DNA of 64,000 bases from Candidatus Omnitrophota bacterium (GTDB taxonomy: Bacteria > Omnitrophota > Gorgyraeia > JABMRN01 > RBG-13-46-9): assembly GCA_043817155.1 (NCBI GenBank), contig JBDRHE010000072.1, positions 1,345-65,344 on the forward strand, given 5' to 3'. Position numbers and translations under genes: made by a program. Below are positions 53,150 through 62,601 of this stretch, in pieces (position 1 is the stretch's first letter; each line of letters begins with the position of its first letter). Below the pieces are notes generated by a model. The model did no database searches. It was not told the origin of the DNA and saw only the letters and a list, made by a program, of their open reading frames with translations.

Positions 53150-53638
53150 ATGAAGAAGATTGCGATAGTTGGAAGTCCTAACGTAGGCAAGAGCGTCTTA
53201 TTTAATGCGCTTACTAAAAGGTATGTAACGGTATCGAACTATCCCGGTACGACGGTCGAAGTTTCGCGAGGAAGGATAGAACTGGAAGGCATGGAGTATG
53301 AGGTAATCGATACGCCGGGGATGTATTCTCTTATGCCGATCACAGAAGAGGAGCGTGTTGCCAGAAGGATTCTTATAAATGAGAAGCCCGATATCGTCCT
53401 CCATGTACTCGATGCAAAGAACTTAGAGAGAATGTTATCTTTGACCTTGCAGCTATCGGAGGCGCATCTTCACACCATATTGGTGCTCAATATCATGGAT
53501 GAAGCAGCCAAAGAGGGAGTCTTTATAGATACCGCGCTACTTGAAAAGGAACTGAAGATTCCCGTTTTAGAGACTGTCTCTACAAAAGGCAAGGGGATAG
53601 AGGAGCTTAAGAAGAGGATTGTCAATCATGACAAATGA
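53150..53638 (+). CDS. feoB: Ferrous iron transporter FeoB, N-terminal GTPase domain, encoded as a separate ORF.
   Basis: GSPNVGKS (G1), DTPG (G3) and NIMD (G4) motifs. 162 aa. Confidence 0.8.
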   Translation: MKKIAIVGSPNVGKSVLFNALTKRYVTVSNYPGTTVEVSRGRIELEGMEYEVIDTPGMYSLMPITEEERVARRILINEKPDIVLHVLDAKNLERMLSLTLQLSEAHLHTILVLNIMDEAAKEGVFIDTALLEKELKIPVLETVSTKGKGIEELKKRIVNHDK

Positions 53639-55076
53639 ATATAAAGGACCGGTCGAATACTCTATAGAGATCGCAGCTGAGAGGATCGAGGCCCTCTTAA
53701 AGGCCGATTACGGCATCTCCAAGCGGTCAATCGCTCTCCTTCTTTTGCAGGAGGATGGCGAAATATTGGATCTTGCGAAGGAGAGAGATCCTGGATCCTT
53801 TCCTGAGATAGATGAATCTATAGAGGAGCTCAAATCACATTATTCCAATCCGATTGTGTACGAGCTGGCGGTTGAAAGGCAAAACGTAGTAAAGGAGATA
53901 ACAGGGAAGGTAGTGAAACTGCGCAAAACTAAGGTCTCTTTCCAGGAAAGATTGAGCCGTCTTACAACGAATCCGGTAACGGGGATACCCATACTTCTAT
54001 TTATTCTTTACATAGGGTTGTATAAGTTTGTAGGTGGGTTTGGCGCAGGAACCATAGTTGATTTTTTGGAGAGGACTATCTTCGAAGAGCGCCTGAATCC
54101 TTTTTTGATAGACCTATTTACCCGCTTTGTTCCATGGGGGGTTATACGGGATCTATTTGTCGGGGAATACGGATTAGTAACGATGGGATTCAGGTATGCA
54201 GTAGCATTGATATTGCCCATCGTTACTCTCTTCTTTGTTGTATTCTCTATAATAGAAGATAGCGGTTATCTGCCGCGCCTTGCGATGCTGATCGACAGAA
54301 CGTTCAAAAAGATCGGCTTAAGCGGAAGGGCTGTTATACCTATGGTGCTGGGGTTCGGATGCGCAACAATGGCAACAATGGTTACAAGGACTCTTCCGAC
54401 CAAACGTGAGCGTGTTATTGCGACCATGCTTCTTGCTCTGGCTGTACCGTGTTCAGCGCAGCTTGGAGTTATCCTGGCTCTTCTGGAGGGTAAGACCGGC
54501 GCTATGTTCATATGGGTCGGGGTGGTTAGTTTTATATTTTTATTTATCGGTTTTCTGACAGCAAAAATTCTACCGGGAGAGAGGCCGTCATTCTATATGG
54601 AGATACCGCCACTACGCATGCCGGGGCTCTCCAATGTGCTTACAAAGACATACGTAAGGGTTAAGTGGTATTTTAAAGAGATACTGCCGATCTTTCTTAT
54701 AGCGAGCGTTCTTATATGGTTTGGTCAGCTTATAGGACTATTTGATCTATTAATAAGGTTTCTTGCAAAACCCGTAGCTCTTATAGGTTTACCTGAGGAA
54801 GCGGCAAAGATATTCTTGTTCGGTTTTTTTAGGCGGGACTATGGTGCAGCCGGGCTTTATGACCTTAATAAGCAGGGGCTATTAAGCGGCGTGCAGCTTG
54901 TAGTCGCATGTGTAGCTTTGACACTATTCCTTCCGTGTATCGCGCAGTTCCTTATTAATGTAAAAGAACGCGGATGGAAGACCGGGTTTGCAATATCGAT
55001 ATTCATACTCTTCTTCTCTTTTGGAGCTGCGTATACGGTCAATCTCCTGTTGACAAGATTGGGAGTGGTGTTATGA
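53628..55076 (+). CDS. feoB: FeoB GDI/helical domain plus membrane permease domain, encoded as a separate ORF.
   Basis: 485 aa with gate-motif-containing TM helices. Overlaps the upstream ORF by 11 nt in the +1 frame. Confidence 0.8.
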   Translation: MTNEYKGPVEYSIEIAAERIEALLKADYGISKRSIALLLLQEDGEILDLAKERDPGSFPEIDESIEELKSHYSNPIVYELAVERQNVVKEITGKVVKLRKTKVSFQERLSRLTTNPVTGIPILLFILYIGLYKFVGGFGAGTIVDFLERTIFEERLNPFLIDLFTRFVPWGVIRDLFVGEYGLVTMGFRYAVALILPIVTLFFVVFSIIEDSGYLPRLAMLIDRTFKKIGLSGRAVIPMVLGFGCATMATMVTRTLPTKRERVIATMLLALAVPCSAQLGVILALLEGKTGAMFIWVGVVSFIFLFIGFLTAKILPGERPSFYMEIPPLRMPGLSNVLTKTYVRVKWYFKEILPIFLIASVLIWFGQLIGLFDLLIRFLAKPVALIGLPEEAAKIFLFGFFRRDYGAAGLYDLNKQGLLSGVQLVVACVALTLFLPCIAQFLINVKERGWKTGFAISIFILFFSFGAAYTVNLLLTRLGVVL

Positions 55077-55252
55077 TTAAGTGCACGCTCTGTGGACTTG
55101 AATTCAATAAAAGTGACGCGAAGGGCGGCTGCACGAGCTGTCCGATGTTAAAGAATAATTGCGAACTTGTAAGGTGTCCCAACTGCGGGTTTGAGACAGT
55201 TTGCCCCGTGGAACGGTCCAAAGATAAAAAGGAAGGAAACCTACCGAAATGA
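55073..55252 (+). CDS. Small Cys-rich (8 Cys) zinc-ribbon-like protein.
   Basis: MIKCTLCGLEF...GGCTSCPMLKNNCELVRCPNCGFE. Translationally coupled (TGATG-type overlap) to feoB and dtxR. Confidence 0.4.
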   Translation: MIKCTLCGLEFNKSDAKGGCTSCPMLKNNCELVRCPNCGFETVCPVERSKDKKEGNLPK

Positions 55253-55887
55253 TATTGACGGACAAAGAAGAAGAGATATTGGAGAGGCTTTGGATAGAGT
55301 TGATAGAACAGAAGAAGGGTCTCTGTGATCCCGAGACCTTCAGAGACAATGAAAGCCTCGAACGCTTAGACGATCTGGGCTATATAAAAATAGAAGAAGC
55401 CCGGATAACTCTTACAGCGAAGGGTGAAGGCGAAGCGAAATATTGCGTAAGAAGGCACCGTCTGGCAGAGAGATTATTTGTAGATGTGTTTGACATCAAA
55501 ATGAAATCGGCTCACGCTCCAAGCTGCAAATTTGAACATCTGCTTCATAAGGGACTTGATGAGAGCATATGTACGCTTTTGGGTCACCCGAAAACATGTC
55601 CACATGGGAAGGCTATACCCGAAGGCAATTGTTGTAATAGGGCCAGGGTGGATCCAAAGAAAATTATAATGCCCTTGCACGAACTAGATGTGAATAAGAA
55701 AGCAAAGATCTGCTATCTTCAGACAAAAGACTCAAGCACCTTGCAGAAGGCCATTGCGATAGGCGCATTGCCTAATACGGAGATCTCTCTTATACAGAAG
55801 ACCCCCTCTATCGTGTTCCAGGTAGGGAAGAGTCAATTCGCCATAGACACCGAACTCGCAAGTCATATATACGTAAGGATATTATAG
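55249..55887 (+). CDS. DtxR/MntR family metal-dependent transcriptional regulator with a C-terminal FeoA (SH3-like) domain.
   Basis: N-terminal HTH. Metal-site residues in RRHRLAERLF...HAPSCKFEH. C-terminal FeoA-like beta domain. Confidence 0.7.
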   Translation: MILTDKEEEILERLWIELIEQKKGLCDPETFRDNESLERLDDLGYIKIEEARITLTAKGEGEAKYCVRRHRLAERLFVDVFDIKMKSAHAPSCKFEHLLHKGLDESICTLLGHPKTCPHGKAIPEGNCCNRARVDPKKIIMPLHELDVNKKAKICYLQTKDSSTLQKAIAIGALPNTEISLIQKTPSIVFQVGKSQFAIDTELASHIYVRIL

Positions 55888-55889
55888 AG

Positions 55890-56807
55890 ATGGACTATCA
55901 GGCGATGACCACAGATTTTATTCATACACTTAAATACTATCTGATCGAGATAATACCCGCTCTCGGGATCGGGTTCTTCCTGAGCGGGCTGGTCCACGAG
56001 TTTATCCCTTCCCACTGGATAAACAGGCATCTTGGCGGCAGGGGAATGAAGGGCATTCTATATTCTACATTAATAGGTACACTTATGCCTGTATGTTGTT
56101 GGGGGTCTCTTCCGATAGCAATGAGCTTTTACATGAGAGGGGCGTCTCTAGGGCCGGTACTCGCGATACTCATTGCCACGCCTGCCACCTCGATCAATGC
56201 GATCATCGTAACCGGTAAATTCTTTGGACTTAAGCTCGCGGCATTCCTATTCTTCTCCGTTATATCGATAGGTGTAACAGCCGGCATAGTCGGTAACATG
56301 ATAAAGGTAAAGCGGAGAGAGTTACCTGACGAGTCGTGTGAATGCCCAACATGCGAGACTGATGAAGGCAAGAGTAAGCCACAGAAGAGAGGACTCAGTC
56401 AGCGCCTCTTGTCCGTTCTCAAGTTTGCGTACATTGATATGCCGAAGAGAATCGGGGTAGAGACGGCTATAGGTCTTCTGCTCGCGGCATTTATAAGCAC
56501 AGTAACTCCCGTTGGGTATTTAGTAAAGAACTACCTGGCAGGGAGCGCGGGATATATATTCTCTGTAATCTTCGGGCTTGCCATGTATATGTGCGCTACC
56601 ATGGGAGTGCCTCTAGTTTACGCTTTTGTAAAACAGGGGCTCGCGATCGGTCCGGGCTTCACGCTACTTCTAATTGGGCCTATCACAAGCTACGGCACAA
56701 TACTTGTGCTGAAGAAGGAATTCGGAATGAAGATACTGGGGATATATCTATCCTTAATATGCGTTACATCGGTACTTTTAGGATATGTATATAGCCTGAT
56801 CCGGTAA
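55890..56807 (+). CDS. Permease of the DUF318/UPF0718 family (two-repeat membrane protein with a central Cys-rich cytoplasmic loop).
   Basis: About 8 TM helices. PVCCWGS motif and CECPTCE loop. Confidence 0.55.
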   Translation: MDYQAMTTDFIHTLKYYLIEIIPALGIGFFLSGLVHEFIPSHWINRHLGGRGMKGILYSTLIGTLMPVCCWGSLPIAMSFYMRGASLGPVLAILIATPATSINAIIVTGKFFGLKLAAFLFFSVISIGVTAGIVGNMIKVKRRELPDESCECPTCETDEGKSKPQKRGLSQRLLSVLKFAYIDMPKRIGVETAIGLLLAAFISTVTPVGYLVKNYLAGSAGYIFSVIFGLAMYMCATMGVPLVYAFVKQGLAIGPGFTLLLIGPITSYGTILVLKKEFGMKILGIYLSLICVTSVLLGYVYSLIR

Positions 56808-56866: not shown

Positions 56867-56921
56867 CGCATCTCGGCTGTTGACGAAAAGTGACGATTAT
56901 CGAGACTCGACCCCAAGTTAT

Positions 56922-57662
56922 ATGAGAAAATTCGCTCTTATTGCATTGGTGTTTTTTAATGCTGCATGCGCCTGGTGCCCTTTATGGCTTTTCACTCAGG
57001 ATTCTGTAGAAGAGAATATATTTTTTTCATATGAAAGATTCTATCCCCAGGCAAGTGTGGTAAAAGATCCTCACCGGGATGGCATAGTACAGACCAACAT
57101 AAGCGATTTTATGCAAAATTATTCAGACGGCATATACGCCATATCCGCGGGGGAAACGGAAAAAGCAAAAAGTAACCTATTAAAAGCGCGGGCAATCTGG
57201 CCGGAATATTTCGGCACGGATTTTCTTTTGGCCCGTGTAAACGAAGACGAGAGGCACTATGGCCTGTCAGCCAGATTTTACAAAAGTTATTTAAATAAAT
57301 TAAGATCTTTGTCCGCAGGGGAATACAGGGTTTCAGAAAAGCTCATAGAGACTATAACCCCTTACAAAATAGAGAACTATGACGAGGCATATATATTCGT
57401 TGAAGAGAGGCTAATGCGATACGGTATAGATCTGGCCAGAGTCCGACCTGTTTATATGATCCTGCCTTTTATCAAGTATTTGATCATATTTTTCGTAATA
57501 GGGACAGGGTGTATAGCAGTGGTTTACAAGGTTATACCGTATATTAAGATGCGGCAGCTTATAAAAAATCCTCCCGAAGGATTTTGGGTGTGTAGTAATT
57601 GCGGAACGGAAAACACTCTGCTTCAAAAAAAATGTGAAAAATGCGACAATTTTAAACAATAG
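56922..57662 (+). CDS. Hypothetical protein with an N-terminal signal/TM segment, a TPR-like segment, a C-terminal TM segment and a zinc ribbon.
   Basis: MRKFALIALVFFNAACA N-terminus and C-terminal WVCSNCGTENTLLQKKCEKC motif. Confidence 0.45.
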   Translation: MRKFALIALVFFNAACAWCPLWLFTQDSVEENIFFSYERFYPQASVVKDPHRDGIVQTNISDFMQNYSDGIYAISAGETEKAKSNLLKARAIWPEYFGTDFLLARVNEDERHYGLSARFYKSYLNKLRSLSAGEYRVSEKLIETITPYKIENYDEAYIFVEERLMRYGIDLARVRPVYMILPFIKYLIIFFVIGTGCIAVVYKVIPYIKMRQLIKNPPEGFWVCSNCGTENTLLQKKCEKCDNFKQ

Positions 57663-57974: not shown

Positions 57975-58003
57975 TTGACAAAAGCCGAATTATAGTATAT
58001 AAT
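57975..58003 (+). promoter_or_regulatory. Consensus sigma70-type promoter TTGACA-17-TATAAT.
   Basis: TTGACA at 57975-57980 and TATAAT at 57998-58003. Predicted transcription start near 58010. Confidence 0.6.
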
Positions 58004-58025
58004 TGATAATGGAAACCGTTATCAA
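58003..58025 (+). promoter_or_regulatory. Inverted repeat TTGATAA-N9-TTATCAA overlapping the -10 element and transcription start: a candidate autoregulatory operator.
   Basis: Its arms match Fur-box half-sites (TGATAAT). Confidence 0.4.
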
Positions 58026-58038
58026 TAGGAGATGCGAA

Positions 58039-58509
58039 ATGCCCAGACGAGACGGAACAGGGCCACCATGGTGGCATGGAAGATTTAGGGGATGTGGCTA
58101 CAGGATGACTGTGCCGAGGCAGGCTATATTAGATGTATTATGCAGAACATCCAAGCATCTAAGCGCTGAGGATGTATATATGGCTGTTCATAAGGTCTAT
58201 CCCAATGTCGGCCTTACTACGATCTATCGTACTTTAGAATTATTGGTCCAGATGGGACTTGTTTTTAAGTTCGATTTCGGTGATGGAAGAGCACGCTATG
58301 AGTTATCAGAAGGACCAAAGGGAGCCAGGCATCACCATCATTTAGTCTGCACAAGCTGTGGCAGAGCCATTGATTATACAGATTTCATAGATGAAGAAGT
58401 AGAATTGCTTAACCAAACCGAAAAAGGACTCTCAAAAAAGTACAATTTCAAAATTACAAATCATCTCATCCAGTTCTATGGGCAATGCGATAGGTGTAAG
58501 AAGGGATAA
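58039..58509 (+). CDS. Fur family transcriptional regulator (second paralog) with a 22-aa Gly/Pro/Arg-rich N-terminal extension (MPRRDGTGPPWWHGRFRGCGYR).
   Basis: AGGAG ribosome-binding site 7 nt upstream of the ATG at 58039. The Fur core starts MTVPRQAILDVL. HHHHLVCTSCG regulatory site. Confidence 0.7.
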   Translation: MPRRDGTGPPWWHGRFRGCGYRMTVPRQAILDVLCRTSKHLSAEDVYMAVHKVYPNVGLTTIYRTLELLVQMGLVFKFDFGDGRARYELSEGPKGARHHHHLVCTSCGRAIDYTDFIDEEVELLNQTEKGLSKKYNFKITNHLIQFYGQCDRCKKG

Positions 58510-58521
58510 ATTTTTTTTCAA

Positions 58522-58548
58522 TGTAAATGACAATGATTGTCATTTACA
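58522..58548 (+). promoter_or_regulatory. Perfect 13-1-13 palindrome TGTAAATGACAAT-G-ATTGTCATTTACA, a Fur-family 7-1-7-type operator candidate (core TGACAATgATTGTCA).
   Basis: Lies between the Fur-family gene and the downstream small-protein/NifX-like operon. Compare the Fur box TGATAATnATTATCA. Confidence 0.55.
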
Positions 58549-58565
58549 AAAAAAAGGTGATTAAT

Positions 58566-58850
58566 ATGCCAGGTGGAGACGGAACTGGCCCTATTGGAAT
58601 GGGGCCGATGACAGGTGGTGGTAGAGGCCATTGTGCTGTTTCGGTTGGAAGAACGCGGAATCGTACTTTTGCCGGGAGATCTTTTGGTGGAGGCAGACGT
58701 CGAGGCTGCGCCGGCCTGCCGACTTGGATGCGATTTAATCAAATGCAGGCAGAAGAAGAGCTTGAAACGCTTAAAGCATATGCGGGTGACATGAAACAAG
58801 AACTCGCGAATATAGAAGAGCGCATAGAAACTCTGCAAAAGTCAAAATGA
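58566..58850 (+). CDS. Small Gly/Pro/Arg-rich protein with a C-terminal coiled coil. It resembles the DUF5320-type proteins found next to NifX-like genes in anaerobes.
   Basis: MPGGDGTGPIGMGPMTGGGRGHCA... then EELETLKAYAGDMKQELANIEERIETLQK. AAGGTGA ribosome-binding site. Confidence 0.55.
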   Translation: MPGGDGTGPIGMGPMTGGGRGHCAVSVGRTRNRTFAGRSFGGGRRRGCAGLPTWMRFNQMQAEEELETLKAYAGDMKQELANIEERIETLQKSK

Positions 58851-58884: not shown

Positions 58885-59259
58885 ATGGAGGAACTGATGA
58901 AACTAGGGATAACTCTGGAAGATGAGAGAGGCATAGATGGCAATGTATCGCTTCATTTCGGGCAATGCAAATATTTTCTCATTGCGGACATAGAAGGCAA
59001 AAAGGTTGCGTGTTCAAAGGTTGTGCCTAATACAGCTGTGCATGGTGGTGGAGGATGTGTTGCAGTGGATGAGATTCTAAAACACAATATTACCCATGTT
59101 ATATCAGGCGGTATGGGTATGGGCGCCCAGAATAAATTTGCTCAAGCAGGCGTTAAGGTTTTTGGATATTCTGGCAAGGTAAAAGACGCGGTAGACGCGC
59201 TTATTAAGAATAATCTAGGCGGATTAGATGCTTGTCATCAGCATGGAGAGTGTAGTTAA
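58885..59259 (+). CDS. NifX/NifB-C-terminal-like dinitrogenase FeMo-cofactor-binding domain protein.
   Basis: About 120 aa with HFGQCKYFLIADIEGKK... and VISGGMG motifs of the NifX/NafY fold. Confidence 0.7.
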   Translation: MEELMKLGITLEDERGIDGNVSLHFGQCKYFLIADIEGKKVACSKVVPNTAVHGGGGCVAVDEILKHNITHVISGGMGMGAQNKFAQAGVKVFGYSGKVKDAVDALIKNNLGGLDACHQHGECS

Positions 59260-59271
59260 AAAAAGGAGATA

Positions 59272-59652
59272 ATGATGAAAGTTTGTGTTACCTCAGAAGG
59301 AAATGCTTTAGATGCCAAGGTTGATCAGCGTTTTGGAAGATGCCAGTATTTCATATTTGTTGATACAGAGACCTTAGAATTTGAGGCAATTGAAAACCCT
59401 AACATTAGTGCTTCTGGCGGTGCCGGTATTCAAGCAGCTCAACTTGTTGCACAGGAGGAAGTAAAGGCAATTTTGACCGGCAATGTGGGTCCAAATGCCT
59501 TTCAAACGTTACAAGCAGCAGGGATCGGTGTGATTACCGGAGCATCCGGTACTGTTAAAGATGTGATAGAGAAGTACAAAAAGAGTGAATTTAAGCCAAC
59601 CCAGGGTCCAAGTGTAAATTCGAAATTCGGCATACCCGGAAAAGAAAAGTAA
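59272..59652 (+). CDS. NifX-like FeMo-cofactor-binding domain protein (paralog).
   Basis: RFGRCQYFIFVD and ILTGNVGPNA motifs. Strong ribosome-binding site. Confidence 0.7.
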   Translation: MMKVCVTSEGNALDAKVDQRFGRCQYFIFVDTETLEFEAIENPNISASGGAGIQAAQLVAQEEVKAILTGNVGPNAFQTLQAAGIGVITGASGTVKDVIEKYKKSEFKPTQGPSVNSKFGIPGKEK

Positions 59653-59666
59653 GGGAGGATCATAAG

Positions 59667-59891
59667 ATGCCATTTAAAGACGCAGCGGGACCAATCGGTC
59701 AGGGTCCAGGTCAAGGTCGAGGCATGGGTAGAGGAGGTAGGCGAAGCAGAGGTCGTCACATTGCGCCTGGCGCAGGACCCGGGGGATATTGTGTCTGCCC
59801 AAGATGTGGCACAAAGATTTCTCATCAGGCCGGGGCACCATGCGGTTCTTTAAATTGTTCAAAATGTGGAAGTCGAATGGCGCGGGAGTAA
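59667..59891 (+). CDS. Small Gly/Pro/Arg-rich protein with a C-terminal zinc ribbon (paralog of the N-termini at 58039 and 58566).
   Basis: MPFKDAAGPIGQGPGQGRGMGRGGRRSRGR...CVCPRCG...CSKCG. AGGGAGG ribosome-binding site. Confidence 0.5.
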   Translation: MPFKDAAGPIGQGPGQGRGMGRGGRRSRGRHIAPGAGPGGYCVCPRCGTKISHQAGAPCGSLNCSKCGSRMARE

Positions 59892-59894
59892 TTC

Positions 59895-60503
59895 TTGGAA
59901 GAGCAATTATCAGAAAACCATAAAAGATATTTAGAGAGAATAAATTTTTACAAAGATTTTGGTTATGATGTTGAAGAAGAGAGAAAATTTATCTTAGAAA
60001 AGTCATGCCCTCTCTATGGAGATATAGTAGAGGTAGGAACGGGCAAGGGATATTTCACTGTTGAACTTGCCAAAGAAGGATACAACTTTACCACTATAGA
60101 TATTTCAGATGAAGAGCAGGAATTTGCCAGACTTAATATAAGATATTTCGGCCTTGAAAAACTTGTAGATTTTAGAATAGAGAACGCCGAGTACTTGAGT
60201 TTTGATAATTCCAGCTTCGATATAATATTTTCTATTAATACAATTCATCATCTTACCAATCCGGCTAAGGTAACAGAAGAGCTGATAAGGATAGTTACTC
60301 TTGAAGGAAAGATAATTTTAAGCGATTTCACCGAAGACGGTTTAAAAATTATAAATAAAATTCATGCAACTGAAGGACGAGTGCATGAAGCCGGTCAAAC
60401 AAGTTTATCAGAAGTAGGTAATTATTTAGAGCAGAGAAGATTCGGTATGCAAAAGCATAAAAGCAGGTTTCAGGAGATACTTATCGCATATCGCCAAAGG
60501 TGA
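59895..60503 (+). CDS. Class I SAM-dependent methyltransferase.
   Basis: VEVGTGKGYFT motif I. TTG start. Its stop codon lies inside repeat A4. Confidence 0.65.
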   Translation: MEEQLSENHKRYLERINFYKDFGYDVEEERKFILEKSCPLYGDIVEVGTGKGYFTVELAKEGYNFTTIDISDEEQEFARLNIRYFGLEKLVDFRIENAEYLSFDNSSFDIIFSINTIHHLTNPAKVTEELIRIVTLEGKIILSDFTEDGLKIINKIHATEGRVHEAGQTSLSEVGNYLEQRRFGMQKHKSRFQEILIAYRQR

Positions 60504-60552
60504 TATGTGTTTTTGATGGAGGGGGGCCCGGACTTTAGTCCGGGGGCTCCAC
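60491..60552. repeat. Family A element, partial copy A4 (hairpin 3 plus spacer).
   Basis: TCGCCAAAGGTGATATGTGTTTTTGATGGAGGGGGGCCCGGACTTTAGTCCGGGGGCTCCAC. Ends 5 nt before the ATG of the MinD-like gene. Confidence 0.8.
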
Positions 60553-60557
60553 TAGTT

Positions 60558-61394
60558 ATGATTATATCAATTGCCAGCGGAAAAGGCGGAACAGGAAAAA
60601 CCACAGTTGCTACAAGTCTCGCCCTCTCCATAAATAGCGGTATTCAGCTTTTGGACTGTGATGTAGAAGAGCCCAACGCCCATATATTCCTAAAACCTAA
60701 AATTCAACAAAGCAAAACCGTATATATCCCCGTACCTAAAATAGACGAATCTAAATGTACCTTTTGCGGGAGATGTGCGGAAGTTTGCACTTATAATGCT
60801 CTTGCCGTACTGAAAGAGAAAGTTTTAACGTTCCCGCATCTATGCCACGGCTGTGGAGGGTGTAATCTTTTTTGTCCCCAGAAAGCGATTACAGAAGGCG
60901 ATAAAAAAATAGGTGTCGTAGAGATTGGCAATTCATCTCACGTGCAATTTGTGCATGGAAGATTAAATATTGGTGAAGTAATGTCGCCCCCCCTGATTAG
61001 AGCGGTTAAAGAGTATATCAACCCAACCAGATCCGTTATTGTAGACGCTCCTCCGGGTACATCCTGTCCTGTTATCGAATCGGTTAAGGGAAGCGACTTT
61101 TGTATATTAGTTACCGAGCCAACACCTTTTGGTTTAAATGATCTAATATTGGCTGTTGAGGTCTTGAAAAAATTAACTATACCTTTCGGGATAGCGGTCA
61201 ATAGGGCTGATATCGGAGATAGCAGCCTAGACGATTATTGCGAGAAAGAGAATATTCCTATACTAATGCGGATACCTTTTAAAAAGAAAATAGCTTTTGC
61301 CTATTCAAAAGGGCTTGCTCTTGTTAGTGAATTTCCAGAATATAAGAAGGAATTTATTCGAGTTTATAAAGAAATTTCAGAAAGAATAAGATGA
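60558..61394 (+). CDS. MinD/Mrp-like P-loop ATPase with an inserted 2x(4Fe-4S) ferredoxin domain.
   Basis: SGKGGTGKTT Walker A motif plus CTFCGRCAEVC and CHGCGGCNLFCP motifs. Confidence 0.75.
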   Translation: MIISIASGKGGTGKTTVATSLALSINSGIQLLDCDVEEPNAHIFLKPKIQQSKTVYIPVPKIDESKCTFCGRCAEVCTYNALAVLKEKVLTFPHLCHGCGGCNLFCPQKAITEGDKKIGVVEIGNSSHVQFVHGRLNIGEVMSPPLIRAVKEYINPTRSVIVDAPPGTSCPVIESVKGSDFCILVTEPTPFGLNDLILAVEVLKKLTIPFGIAVNRADIGDSSLDDYCEKENIPILMRIPFKKKIAFAYSKGLALVSEFPEYKKEFIRVYKEISERIR

Positions 61395-62236
61395 AGCAAA
61401 TAGTAGTAATCAGCGGAAAGGGTGGTACGGGTAAGACTGTGTTAACAGCATCATTTGCTGCTTTGGCGAAAAACGCTAGTTTCGCAGACTGTGATGTAGA
61501 TGCGCCTGATCTGCATTTATTATTAAAACCGGAAATAAAGGAAAAGCATGAATTTAGAAGCGGAAAGACGGCAAAGATAGATAAGAGACTCTGCCAGGAA
61601 TGCGGTAAATGTATTGATATATGCAGGTTTGATGCGTTACGTAAAGATTTTACAATAGATTCTATTTCCTGTGAAGGCTGTGCTGTTTGTAGTCGCGTAT
61701 GTCCAACTAATGCAATCACCATGGAAGAGAATCTATCGGGAGAATGGTTTATTTCAGAAACAAAATATGGCCCCATGGTACACGCAAGGCTTGGCATCGC
61801 TGAGGAAAACTCGGGTAAGCTTGTAACGTTAGTGAGGCAAAATGCGAAGAAAATCGCGGAAGAAAGAAATAAAGACTATTGTATTATTGATGGGCCTCCG
61901 GGAATTGGATGTCCGGTGATCGCTTCATTAGCCAATGTAGATCTAGCCTTGATAGTTACAGAACCCACCCTGTCGGGTATCCATGATATGGAACGGGTCG
62001 CCGATGTTACTAAGCACTTTAGCATCAATACAAAGGTCGTAATAAATAAGTACGATATTAATTTTAAAAACGCCCAGGATATTAGAAAAATATGCCAAGT
62101 CAGGAAAGTAGAAGTTGTGGCCGAGTTGCCCTTTTCTGAAAATGTAACCAGGTCGGTAGTGCGAGGTATGCCCATTGTTGAATTCTGCAATGACCAAATA
62201 GCAAAGGATATAGTTGCTTTATGGAAGAAGATTTAG
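61391..62236 (+). CDS. MinD/Mrp-like P-loop ATPase with an inserted 4Fe-4S ferredoxin domain (paralog).
   Basis: SGKGGTGKTV plus CQECGKCIDIC and CEGCAVCSRVCP motifs. ATGA overlap with the upstream gene. Confidence 0.75.
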   Translation: MKQIVVISGKGGTGKTVLTASFAALAKNASFADCDVDAPDLHLLLKPEIKEKHEFRSGKTAKIDKRLCQECGKCIDICRFDALRKDFTIDSISCEGCAVCSRVCPTNAITMEENLSGEWFISETKYGPMVHARLGIAEENSGKLVTLVRQNAKKIAEERNKDYCIIDGPPGIGCPVIASLANVDLALIVTEPTLSGIHDMERVADVTKHFSINTKVVINKYDINFKNAQDIRKICQVRKVEVVAELPFSENVTRSVVRGMPIVEFCNDQIAKDIVALWKKI

Positions 62237-62601
62237 TTGCTTATCCAGAACATATTATAGCGCTTGCTAAGGACTCCACACACTTTGGAAGAATGAATGA
62301 TCCTACGAGTGCAGCAATCATTAAAGGGCCTTGCGGCGATGAAATGGAATTTTATCTTGTTATTAAGGACAGGATTATTGAGGATATAAAATTTTACACT
62401 AAAGGATGCTTAGCTACAATCGTCTGCGGCTCTATGACCGCACAGTTAGCATTAGGAAAATCTATTGACGAAGTACTGGGGATTTCTCCCAAAGAGGTTG
62501 TTGATGCCTTGAGTGGTTTATCAGAAGATCACTGTCACTGCTCTATTTTGGCTGTCAGTGCCATTTATAGGGCCATTGCGGATTACCTACTTAAGAAATG
62601 A
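62221..62601 (+). CDS. IscU/NifU N-terminal-like Fe-S scaffold domain protein.
   Basis: GPCGDEM, GCLATIVCGS and HCHCS motifs (the three Cys plus His of IscU). Confidence 0.7.
   Translation: MEEDLVAYPEHIIALAKDSTHFGRMNDPTSAAIIKGPCGDEMEFYLVIKDRIIEDIKFYTKGCLATIVCGSMTAQLALGKSIDEVLGISPKEVVDALSGLSEDHCHCSILAVSAIYRAIADYLLKK

Follow-up and report, generated by a model that had tools for sequence, protein, structure and literature searches.

Introduction

The orp operons of Desulfovibrio encode the ATPases Orp3 and Orp4, each with two [4Fe-4S] motifs, as well as Orp8 and Orp9, which carry a Nitro_FeMo-Co domain (PMC6345978). In the ferric uptake regulation protein (Fur) of Magnetospirillum gryphiswaldense (MgFur), Lys15 of loop L1, the lysine of the sequence GMKMT, inserts into the minor groove of the operator; the exchange K15A weakens binding, and the residue is needed for function (PMC4506495). 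Here, we describe a locus that is related to both systems, namely a fur-like gene at the head of an orange protein (ORP)-like gene cluster in a 64,000-nt stretch of DNA from a Candidatus Omnitrophota bacterium (contig JBDRHE010000072.1; the whole stretch is referred to as the window, and coordinates are collected in Table 1). An initial annotation of the window had described the product as a Fur-family regulator with a 22-residue N-terminal extension that is shared with two small proteins of its target operon.

That the protein belongs to a large and so far undescribed Fur subfamily, which is encoded in at least 593 species and heads a conserved ORP-like cluster, is solidly founded, and the regulator probably represses this cluster. 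The explanation we favor, and consider fairly probable as a whole, is that of an autoregulated Fur repressor heading an ORP-like operon, in which residues 10–22 are the equivalent of helix α1 and loop L1 of ordinary Fur proteins, whereas the first nine residues form a weakly constrained tail, either a relic or an accessory motif.

A Fur Subfamily at the Head of a Conserved ORP-Like Cluster

The protein is a member of the Fur family, as had been proposed initially, and family models, metal sites and the N-terminal elements α1 and L1 agree on this. The Pfam model FUR (PF01475) matches residues 20–147 with positions 3–121 of its 121 and scores 110.9 bits against a cut-off of 23.1, the best NCBIfam model is the Fur equivalog TransRegFurBacil (127 bits), and 24 Fur-family chains of the Protein Data Bank (PDB) match at E<1e-5, headed by chain 9ire_A, which is deposited as 'Ferric uptake regulation protein' (E 2.7e-30). 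All positions of the Fur metal sites are kept (H40, E88, H98–H101, C104, C107, E120, H142, C150, and C153), and the HHHH sequence aligns with HHDH in chain 2w57_A. Among the best 120 of 1984 database relatives, which are 79–100% identical over ~99% of the query with the N-terminus included (hereafter the 120 relatives), C153 is at least 90% conserved and all the other ligand positions are invariant. In the AlphaFold2 model (mean pLDDT 81), which was judged to look Fur-like, four helices precede strands and an α/β part at the C-terminus. In the NCBI annotation, the 156-aa form is already listed as a Fur-family regulator, and a Candidatus Omnitrophota metagenome-assembled genome has an annotated protein of identical sequence.

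Downstream of the fur-like gene, two MinD/ParA ATPases with 4Fe-4S inserts are clustered with Nitro_FeMo-Co proteins, a gene content that resembles that of the ORP complex genes, and the two NifX-like proteins match the NCBIfam model MrpORP partially, with 40–47 bits against a cut-off of 450. Neither regulation of the sigma-54/OrpR type nor an MrpORP fusion was found at the cluster, no search of the whole window for an OrpR homolog having been made. The gene next to fur encodes a protein of the DUF5320 family (PF17253), the members of which start with a characteristic peptide (MPxxDGTGP and following residues) that is referred to as the head, and a second small protein with such a head and a zinc-ribbon-like C-terminus (the 59667 protein) is encoded behind the NifX-like pair.

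In a scan of one genome per species, relatives of the Fur protein were found in at least 593 genomes from >10 phyla, with Omnitrophota, Thermodesulfovibrionales, Planctomycetia, Calditrichota, Atribacterota, Spirochaetota, WOR-3, Lentisphaerae, Elusimicrobiota, and Aminicenantes among the taxa. The order Fur, DUF5320 protein, two NifX-like proteins, small head/zinc-ribbon protein, (methyltransferase), two MinD-like ATPases, (NifU) and (MBL-fold protein) recurs downstream of Fur, whole or in part, in most of the loci L001–L073 (>10 phyla), while the most distant matches, which are canonical Fur proteins (L075–L080), stand without the cluster. The Fur proteins of Omnitrophota (the window), Nitrospirota and WOR-3 are 80–88% identical across phyla (L004 from Thermodesulfovibrionales; proteins P0048, P0108, and P0117), suggesting either that the cluster as a whole was spread horizontally or that constraint is unusually strong. 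In Candidatus Nitricultor (L046), Fur is flanked by two divergent parts of the cluster, both of which include a DUF5320 gene of their own, an arrangement that recalls the two divergent orp operons of Desulfovibrio.

Residues 10–22 Correspond to Helix α1 and Loop L1 of Fur

In the initial annotation, MTVPRQAILDVL was taken as the canonical N-terminus of Fur and the residues ahead of it as an extension; this did not hold, as residues 12–22 align with α1/L1 of solved Fur proteins. Query residue 17 corresponds to residue 13 of 9ire_A, residue 9 of 2w57_A, and residues 24–25 of 6d57_A/4ets_A, and the solved proteins have 8–23 residues ahead of this position. As Fur proteins normally carry 8–23 residues there, the window protein is no longer than an ordinary Fur, and only ~9 of its residues are foreign. 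We take 9ire_A, 2w57_A, and 1mzb_A to be the Fur proteins of B. subtilis, V. cholerae, and P. aeruginosa (PaFur), 3eyy_A (deposited as 'putative iron uptake regulatory protein') to be S. coelicolor Nur, and the group of 2xig_A, 4ets_A, and 6d57_A to be H. pylori/C. jejuni Fur, the latter two presumably from C. jejuni.

At the level of single residues, WHGRFRGCGYRMT aligned to WKSDLRQRGYRLT in chain 3eyy_A, and with the N-terminal half alone as the query, WHGRFRGCGYRMTVPRQ aligned to WKSDLRQRGYRLTPQRQ of the same chain and RFRGCGYRMTVPR to ELRKAGLKVTLPR of 1mzb_A, so that the element W12...GYR-x-T is matched in the chains that we take to be Nur and PaFur and also in MgFur. In the latter, KGMKMT is aligned with CGYRMT, which puts R22 on the lysine of GMKMT. 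R22 is invariant in the 120 relatives, while W11, W12, G14, F16, G18, G20, and Y21 are at least 90% conserved, and AlphaFold2 predicts a short helix at residues 10–16. By these alignments, residues 10–22 are the clade's own version of Fur α1 and L1. R22 is the counterpart of the minor-groove lysine of canonical Fur, and, by analogy with MgFur, the Trp/Arg/Gly-rich residues 10–22 would help to hold the operator DNA. The supposed extension had thus been over-read, since for the most part it is a normal, DNA-facing Fur N-terminus.

Translation Starts at Position 58039

Residue numbers in the preceding section count from the ATG at 58039–58041, which follows the AGGAG sequence with a gap of 7 nt and had initially been favored for this ribosome-binding site. 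Codons 1–22 (58039–58104) read MPRRDGTGPPWWHGRFRGCGYR and are in frame with an internal ATG at 58105 (MTVPRQ...). Several lines of evidence agree in making 58039 the true start codon, which we state with high confidence. (i) Residue 23 is Met in 49 of the 120 relatives and Leu in 39, Ile in 18, Val in 7, Phe in 6, and Trp in 1, hence it is replaced in 71 of them. (ii) In 30 species-level loci that share the register, the per-site differences in codons 10–22 amount to 0.18, 0.18, and 0.50 for the first, second, and third codon position, compared with 0.34, 0.17, and 0.62 in the codons of the DNA-binding domain; the differences fall mainly on third positions, which indicates purifying selection, and by sequence comparison this is a clear coding signature with a constraint at least equal to that of the DNA-binding domain. 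(iii) Many of the homologous loci, in a set of 80 from species-representative genomes, have an in-frame stop 1–10 codons 5' of the ATG. (iv) The order of promoter, operator, Shine-Dalgarno (SD) sequence and ATGCC is conserved across many phyla, with (A)AGGAG kept ~7–9 nt 5' of ATGCC in homologous loci. (v) The identical protein of the Omnitrophota genome is annotated with all 156 residues, and the alignments of the 120 relatives extend over the N-terminus. The translation of all 22 codons ahead of MTVPRQ, as initially proposed, is therefore secure.

Initiation at 58105, with the upstream codons as an untranslated leader, would be conceivable from the presence of that ATG and of a weak purine-rich GGGGA sequence 12 nt 5' of it. 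However, its Met is the one that is missing in most relatives, codons 10–22 evolve in the manner of coding sequence, and the strong SD sequence, the promoter and the operator are placed for 58039 in all lineages. Moreover, as residues 10–22 represent α1/L1, initiation at 58105 would cut off a functional part of the protein, R22 included. We regard the internal start as effectively refuted, and annotation pipelines that choose it would yield a defective protein. Starts further upstream, at the in-frame ATG 58009 or TTG 58003, were rejected as well, as they lie within the operator or the -10 hexamer, have no SD sequence and coincide with a region in which homologs have stop codons; the codons of 58003–58038 are not conserved as coding sequence. 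A mechanical open reading frame (ORF) finder nevertheless yields a 168-aa protein, MIMETVINRRCEMPRR..., from TTG 58003, in which ATGGAAACC is the operator core.

A side observation concerns the near-invariant sequence G-P-P-W-W at 58060–58074, which includes Pro-Pro-Trp. Pro-Pro-Trp is a ribosome-stalling motif that depends strongly on elongation factor P (EF-P), and the synthesis of the Fur-type repressor may hence depend on EF-P.

Two Putative Operators Suggest Repression of Fur and of the Cluster

The fur-like gene is preceded by a sigma-70 promoter that matches the consensus throughout, and the -10 hexamer is directly followed by a palindrome (operator 1) with the Fur-box-like core AATGGAAACCGTTATCA at 58008–58024. 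A second palindrome (operator 2) is found in the intergenic spacer behind fur, ahead of the DUF5320 gene, and its core is a 7-1-7 site, TGACAAT-G-ATTGTCA, at 58526–58544. When both strands of the window were scanned with the pattern AATGRMAAYSRTTDTCA, 58008–58024 and 58526–58544, the latter on both strands, were the only sites, giving 3 matches against 0.05 expected by chance. Both operators are kept in place in other phyla, with a consensus near TGATAATGGAAACCATTTTCAAT for site 1 and TTAATGAAAATGATTTTCATTAA for site 2, and the latter element is present in the fur/DUF5320 spacer of most related loci. The two also resemble what we take to be the 7-1-7 Fur-family site of B. subtilis, TGATAATnATTATCA. 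By sequence, both sites hence qualify as AT-rich palindromic putative operators of the Fur-box/7-1-7 kind.

As one operator is placed at the fur promoter and the other before the DUF5320 gene, we infer that Fur represses both, and as all metal-ligand positions are invariant, the protein very probably acts, judging from its sequence, as a metal-dependent repressor on its own gene as well as on the cluster. Transcription would proceed from the consensus promoter, with operator 1 right behind its -10 hexamer, until metal-loaded Fur, with a contribution of residues 10–22 to operator binding, shuts down its own gene and the operon, which operator 2 fronts. The proposal of the initial annotation that Fur regulates the downstream operon agrees with the conserved predicted operators and with the synteny.

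A promoter scan of the window found no separate sigma-70 promoter for the DUF5320 gene. In other loci, a conserved TATATTTTTTT just 3' of the fur stop codon may be the -10 hexamer of a second promoter. The 41-bp inverted repeat that contains operator 2 is flanked by T8 and A8, with the A-run reaching the SD sequence of the DUF5320 gene, and as RNA it could form an AU-rich hairpin that affects translation.

The First Nine Residues Resemble the Heads of DUF5320 Proteins

Three paralogous heads had been proposed, in Fur and in the proteins starting at 58566 (MPGGDGTGPIGMGPMTGGGRGHCA) and 59667 (MPFKDAAGPIGQGPGQGRGMGRGG), both of which read as quoted. For the two small proteins this stands, and their heads are unquestionably related at the sequence level: hhalign aligns them over 22 columns with 73% identity (P 1.4e-9, probability 96%), and homologs of the 59667 protein in 20 loci carry MPxGDGTGPxGQGPGxGRG. 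The 59667 protein has weak Pfam matches, none above threshold, to DUF5320 (residues 1–42, E 0.016) and to zinc ribbons. In DUF5320 proteins, M1, P2, D5, G8, P9, G11, G13, P14, M15, G17, and G21 are invariant, and the head is the most conserved part, the remainder averaging 37% column identity. AlphaFold2 models residues 1–50 of the DUF5320 protein with low confidence (block means 43–52) and residues 58–93 as a helix; no solved structure was found for either small protein, the one similarity being a weak one to the L32 zinc ribbon. One DUF5320 protein of 157 aa (P0161) has two tandem heads. In the second, an internal 'MPGGDKTGP' is kept; a gene fusion is thereby suggested, and heads are evidently not restricted to the terminus.

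For Fur, what stands of the proposed common MP..D..GP head is the MPxxDGTGP start, which covers residues 1–9 or 1–10. When the 28-residue N-terminal peptide was compared with Pfam, DUF5320 was the sole family matched, in register (residues 1–21 on profile positions 1–22) and below threshold (E 0.1, 14.2 bits against a cut-off of 27), while the full-length protein had no DUF5320 match in Pfam at E<=0.01. In hhalign comparisons of the two families, columns 1–9 or 1–10 only were aligned, with P 1e-4 to 3e-4 for the N-terminal segment, and P 0.003 and a probability of 10% for full-length profiles. Fur shares M1, P2, D5, G8, and P9, but has W11, H13, G14, R15, R17, and Y21 further on; its head runs straight into the Fur domain, and the threshold score, the set of invariant head residues, and the linker with a coiled-coil helix that characterize DUF5320 are absent. 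Homology at the level of a domain is therefore not supported. By sequence, residues 1–9 are the only foreign part of the Fur N-terminus, and the claimed DUF5320–Fur fusion architecture shrinks to a poorly conserved tail of nine residues, for which AlphaFold2 gives pLDDT <50 at residues 1–7.

Within these limits, the likeness goes beyond composition, which the initial annotation itself had named as a possible cause and which was rejected for the close clade. Against a matrix of the head, 91 of 106 close Fur N-termini give p<0.01 in a shuffle test, and the pattern MP..[DN][GR].GP occurs in 90 of 4654 ORFs of 80 related loci and in no unrelated family, the 90 being 47 + 19 of the DUF5320 type (the 19 were left unassigned by a phmmer screen and judged by eye), 19 relatives of the 59667 protein, and 5 Fur proteins. 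It might still be by chance that a fast-evolving Gly/Pro/Arg-rich tail, unrelated to DUF5320, reads DGTGP in one lineage, as the Fur family consensus over residues 1–9 is just 'Mp~~~~~Gp', the full-length profiles show little kinship, and the tails of deeper relatives vary (MPGRLGKGP, MPRGECRGQ, MPSHK). However, the match is in register from Met1, it is specific to the related families, in every locus two neighbors of fur encode the same head, and an MP[GR][GR] start recurs in several deep lineages, so that chance seems to us a quite improbable origin.

The tail is at the same time the least constrained part of the gene, with 0.51, 0.40, and 0.66 differences per site at the three positions of codons 2–9. 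Among the 120 relatives, 55 keep MP..[DN]G.GP and 28 keep MP..DGTGP, whereas WW.G[RK]F[RK]G.G[YFH]R is kept by 99. At the level of species, the head pattern is found in 5 of 36 loci (35 from the genome scan and the window as the 36th), i.e., in the window and four others, and the heads of the neighboring DUF5320 proteins are unchanged. Deeper members of the clade start with other Gly/Arg-rich peptides, such as MPGRLGKGPAKWW, MPRGECRGQGWW, MPSHKWRKRF, and MPGRGMGMGRHW. Residues 1–9 would thus be a disordered tail that, in the lineage of the window, copies the near-invariant MPxxDGTGP head of the operon, a head either captured from the neighboring genes or converged on them, and that persists as a weakly constrained relic or as a lineage-specific accessory motif. 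This origin and the low importance of the tail, which in our view is not a conserved sensing domain, are deduced from the pattern of conservation.

Over their first 26 nt, the two genes share 77% identity, which adds to the evidence against a chance match. Gene conversion or a recent duplication involving the 5' ends of the fur and DUF5320 genes was considered and rejected, as nucleotide identity is 0.56 within the same locus compared with 0.58 between loci, and synonymous sites differ in the window (CCC/CCA, ACA/ACT, GGG/GGC, and CCA/CCT). An observation of its own is the extreme synonymous bias in codons 2–7 of the heads of DUF5320 and 59667-type genes from the 80 loci: CCA makes up 71% of the Pro codons against 16% in background genes, GGA 92% of the Gly codons at head position 6 against 30%, and ACA 62% of the Thr codons against 29%, and the bias is gone from codon 8 onward. 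The head-bearing fur genes also use GGA ACA at these positions (58039–58059 in the window; 58566–58586 in the DUF5320 gene). An RNA-level element, or selection acting on the region of translation initiation, could underlie the bias.

Possible Alternative Roles of the N-Terminus

Several points weigh against the explanation that we favor. The shallow clade around the window protein retains G8 in 90%, P9 in 80%, P2 in 81%, and [DN]5 in 70% of its members, and head-bearing sequences occur in at least two subgroups of this clade, parted by degenerate ones; both argue for some selection on the tail. As the head-bearing subgroups are separated in this way, the head seems to be ancestral to the shallow clade, present at its base and lost repeatedly. 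An invariant and predicted disordered head, as modeled for DUF5320, is moreover typical of a docking motif, and a related role in Fur is conceivable. DNA contact by residues 10–21 is proposed solely by analogy with MgFur, and both repression as the direction of regulation and iron as the sensed metal are putative.

Some of these points would fit a reading of MPxxDGTGP as a short linear docking motif for a shared partner, either a MinD/ParA ATPase or a NifX-like protein, which titrates or activates the repressor and hence couples transcription to the state of the complex; this would be a specific form of the shared interaction or sensing module that had been proposed initially. Partners of ParA/MinD-type ATPases act on them through flexible, basic peptides at their N-termini (ParG/ParF, ParB), and one of these partners is itself a repressor; the flexible N-terminal tail of the repressor ParG reportedly communicates with the ParA-type ATPase ParF. 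The head indeed sits at the extreme N-terminus of three proteins of one operon, its pattern is specific to three families, it is partly kept in the Fur clade around the window protein, the DUF5320 head is modeled at low confidence without secondary structure, as is usual for docking motifs, and two MinD/ParA-type ATPases are always nearby. Yet the presumed motif is the least conserved segment of Fur and was lost in most species-level relatives with no change in the DUF5320 heads or in the content of the cluster, 9 of 22 head positions are common (G11, G13, P14, M15, and G17 of DUF5320 are W, H, G, R, and R in Fur), and no co-variation of Fur and DUF5320 head variants was found within loci. Docking appears unlikely to us, though its probability is not negligible; if it is true, this would be an unusual case of a Fur regulator that is connected with the complex it controls through a common peptide motif.

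Residues 1–22 could also act as a whole, by binding an anionic metal-sulfide species (a thioferrate-like or thiometallate chain) as a second input of Fur. They contain 5 Arg, 5 Gly, 2 Trp, 1 Phe, and 1 Tyr, and the DUF5320 and 59667 families have long GRGWGRG-type repeats beside NifX-like proteins. In IssA, an IPR003731/Nitro_FeMo-Co domain is paired with a disordered cationic Trp/Gly/Arg tail, which was proposed to wrap thioferrate (PMC5524996). This case is one of analogy alone, however, and DNA is a polyanion as well: the conserved part aligns with the DNA-facing α1/L1 of ordinary Fur, and His13 and Cys19 are not invariant. Such binding is, in our estimate, highly unlikely.

Both ideas can be put into one broader proposal, according to which the N-terminus, with its head and Trp/Arg/Gly segment, is a second sensory input that responds to the same partner or metal-sulfide species as the heads and tails of the small proteins, so that repression tracks the loading of the machinery as well as free metal. 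We consider this doubtful; if true, it would make the protein a Fur regulator with a feedback loop mediated by a peptide motif.

Genomic Surroundings

Table 1. Positions of the fur-like gene, its regulatory elements and the genes of the ORP-like cluster within the window.
Feature	Position	Strand	Evidence
Sigma-70 promoter of the fur-like gene, TTGACA-17 nt-TATAAT	57975..58003	+	12/12 consensus positions; layout found upstream of homologs in many phyla
Putative operator 1, 25-bp palindrome ATTGATAATGG-AAA-CCGTTATCAAT, directly after the -10 hexamer	58002..58026	.	Inverted-repeat search; conserved position
Shine-Dalgarno sequence AGGAG	58027..58031	+	Read directly; 7 nt to the ATG
Fur-family putative repressor gene, 156 aa	58039..58509	+	Pfam FUR E 5.5e-32
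Codons 1–9, MPRRDGTGP, tail like a DUF5320-type head, predicted disordered	58039..58065	+	AlphaFold2, hhalign, codon differences
Codons 10–22, PWWHGRFRGCGYR, equivalent of helix α1 and loop L1, with invariant R22 (58102–58104)	58066..58104	+	Alignment, conservation, AlphaFold2
Putative operator 2, part of a 41-bp inverted repeat, fur/DUF5320 intergenic spacer	58515..58555	.	Inverted repeat and pattern scan
DUF5320 protein, 94 aa: invariant head, Gly/Arg-rich linker, C-terminal long helix	58566..58850	+	Pfam DUF5320 E 4.6e-19
NifX/orange-protein-like protein 1 (Nitro_FeMo-Co)	58885..59259	+	Pfam E 2.4e-18; matches MrpORP C-terminal domain (NCBIfam)
NifX/orange-protein-like protein 2 (Nitro_FeMo-Co)	59272..59652	+	Pfam E 4.3e-27
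Small protein, 74 aa: DUF5320-type head (MPFKDAAGP), Gly/Arg-rich linker, Cys-rich zinc-ribbon-like C-terminus	59667..59891	+	Weak Pfam matches; hhalign
Class I S-adenosylmethionine-dependent methyltransferase	59895..60503	+	Pfam Methyltransf_11 E 4.9e-19; syntenic in many loci
Two MinD/ParA-type P-loop ATPases with 4Fe-4S ferredoxin inserts, Orp3/Orp4-like	60507..61394 and 61391..62236	+	Pfam ParA, CbiA, Fer4
NifU_N/IscU-like scaffold, end of the cluster	62221..62601	+	Pfam NifU_N E 2.8e-23

Upstream of fur, the window encodes a FeoB-like transporter (53619–55076), a DtxR/MntR-like regulator (55249–55887), a 305-aa ORF (55890–56807) with a hydrophobic, permease-like membrane-protein sequence, as judged by sequence character only, and a 260-aa protein (56880–57662) that ends in a zinc-ribbon-like CxxC...CxxC. 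A FeoB-like ORF was also found within 5 kb of the relatives' Fur in L012, L021, L028, L036, and L053, and these FeoB genes beside Fur, in the window and in several other loci, are a hint at iron.

Within the cluster, the methyltransferase gene lies beside those for the Arg-Gly-repeat proteins that start with Met-Pro, and methylation of Arg or of the N-terminus is conceivable. In the loci L001–L072, the DUF5320 and zinc-ribbon proteins have long repeats of Gly, Arg, Trp, and aromatic residues (GRGWGRGYGRG...) beside NifX-like IPR003731 proteins, and such clusters may be a split version of the IssA arrangement of a domain with a cationic tail.

Implications

The finding is real and modestly new, as a known type of regulator is combined with a conserved, unusual N-terminus and a defined putative regulon. 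The searchable literature yielded no paper dealing with DUF5320, a term that is used there only in passing, a single time in each of two unrelated papers, and none on the MPxxDGTGP/DGTGP head or on Fur control of ORP-like clusters; the initial annotation, which knew of no description of this architecture, is in line with this. The ORP-like clusters of strict anaerobes, with their DUF5320 genes, would now be tied to metal sensing, probably of iron, and the locus offers an experimental handle in the form of two putative operators, one regulator and one defined N-terminal segment.

Comparison With Known Systems

DUF5320 proteins are the closest match to the tail of Fur, as their first nine residues, MPxxDGTGP, are in register with it, the genes are adjacent in one operon and the choice of codons at positions 2–7 is similar. 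In contrast to DUF5320, Fur lacks head positions 10–22 (GxGPMTGxGxGxC), the Gly/Arg repeats and the C-terminal coiled coil. With IssA of Pyrococcus furiosus, the window operon has the IPR003731 domain family in common, and disordered Trp/Gly/Arg-rich cationic segments are found in the DUF5320 protein, in the 59667 protein and, in miniature, at the N-terminus of Fur; while the C-terminal tail of IssA is fused to the domain, the tails in the window are on separate proteins, and the likeness is known from sequence alone.

Within the Fur family, the N-terminus of 3eyy_A, W-x(3)-L-R-Q-R-G-Y-R-L-T, corresponds to W12-H-G-R-F-R-G-C-G-Y-R-M-T of the window protein, which has both an MPxxDGTGP tail and a WW pair, neither of which 3eyy_A is known to have. 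Nur is a nickel-responsive regulator with a different regulon. The chains 2xig_A, 4ets_A, and 6d57_A represent members with more residues before α2 (query residue 20 aligns with residue 22 of 2xig_A). The extra N-terminal residues of H. pylori and C. jejuni Fur reportedly form an additional helix, whereas those of the window Fur are a Gly/Pro-rich tail that AlphaFold2 models with low confidence and without secondary structure.

Canonical Fur proteins, such as 9ire_A, 2w57_A, and 1mzb_A (all deposited as 'ferric uptake regulation protein') and M. gryphiswaldense Fur in complex with DNA (4RB1/4RB3), have the winged-helix DNA-binding and dimerization domains in common with the window protein, together with the HHxH motif, two CxxC pairs, the H/E/H ligand positions and a basic residue, R22, at the position of Lys15; the putative operators are related to the 19-bp Fur box and the 7-1-7 site. 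The window protein differs in that a conserved PWWHGRFRGCG, preceded by the nine-residue Gly/Pro tail, takes the place of α1, and in that its gene, as far as seen, belongs to a dedicated and syntenic regulator of an ORP-like cluster rather than to a global iron regulator.

The cluster itself is most similar to the orp operons of Desulfovibrio vulgaris Hildenborough (Orp3, 4, 5, 8, and 9), as MinD/ParA ATPases, Nitro_FeMo-Co proteins and small Cys-rich proteins are clustered in anaerobes in both cases (PMC6345978). Unlike in D. vulgaris, a fusion of Mrp and NifX is absent from the window cluster, and a methyltransferase and a NifU_N protein are added. Finally, while orp transcription in D. vulgaris depends on sigma-54 and the activator OrpR, the regulator in the window is of the Fur type and would act as an autorepressor at a sigma-70 promoter.

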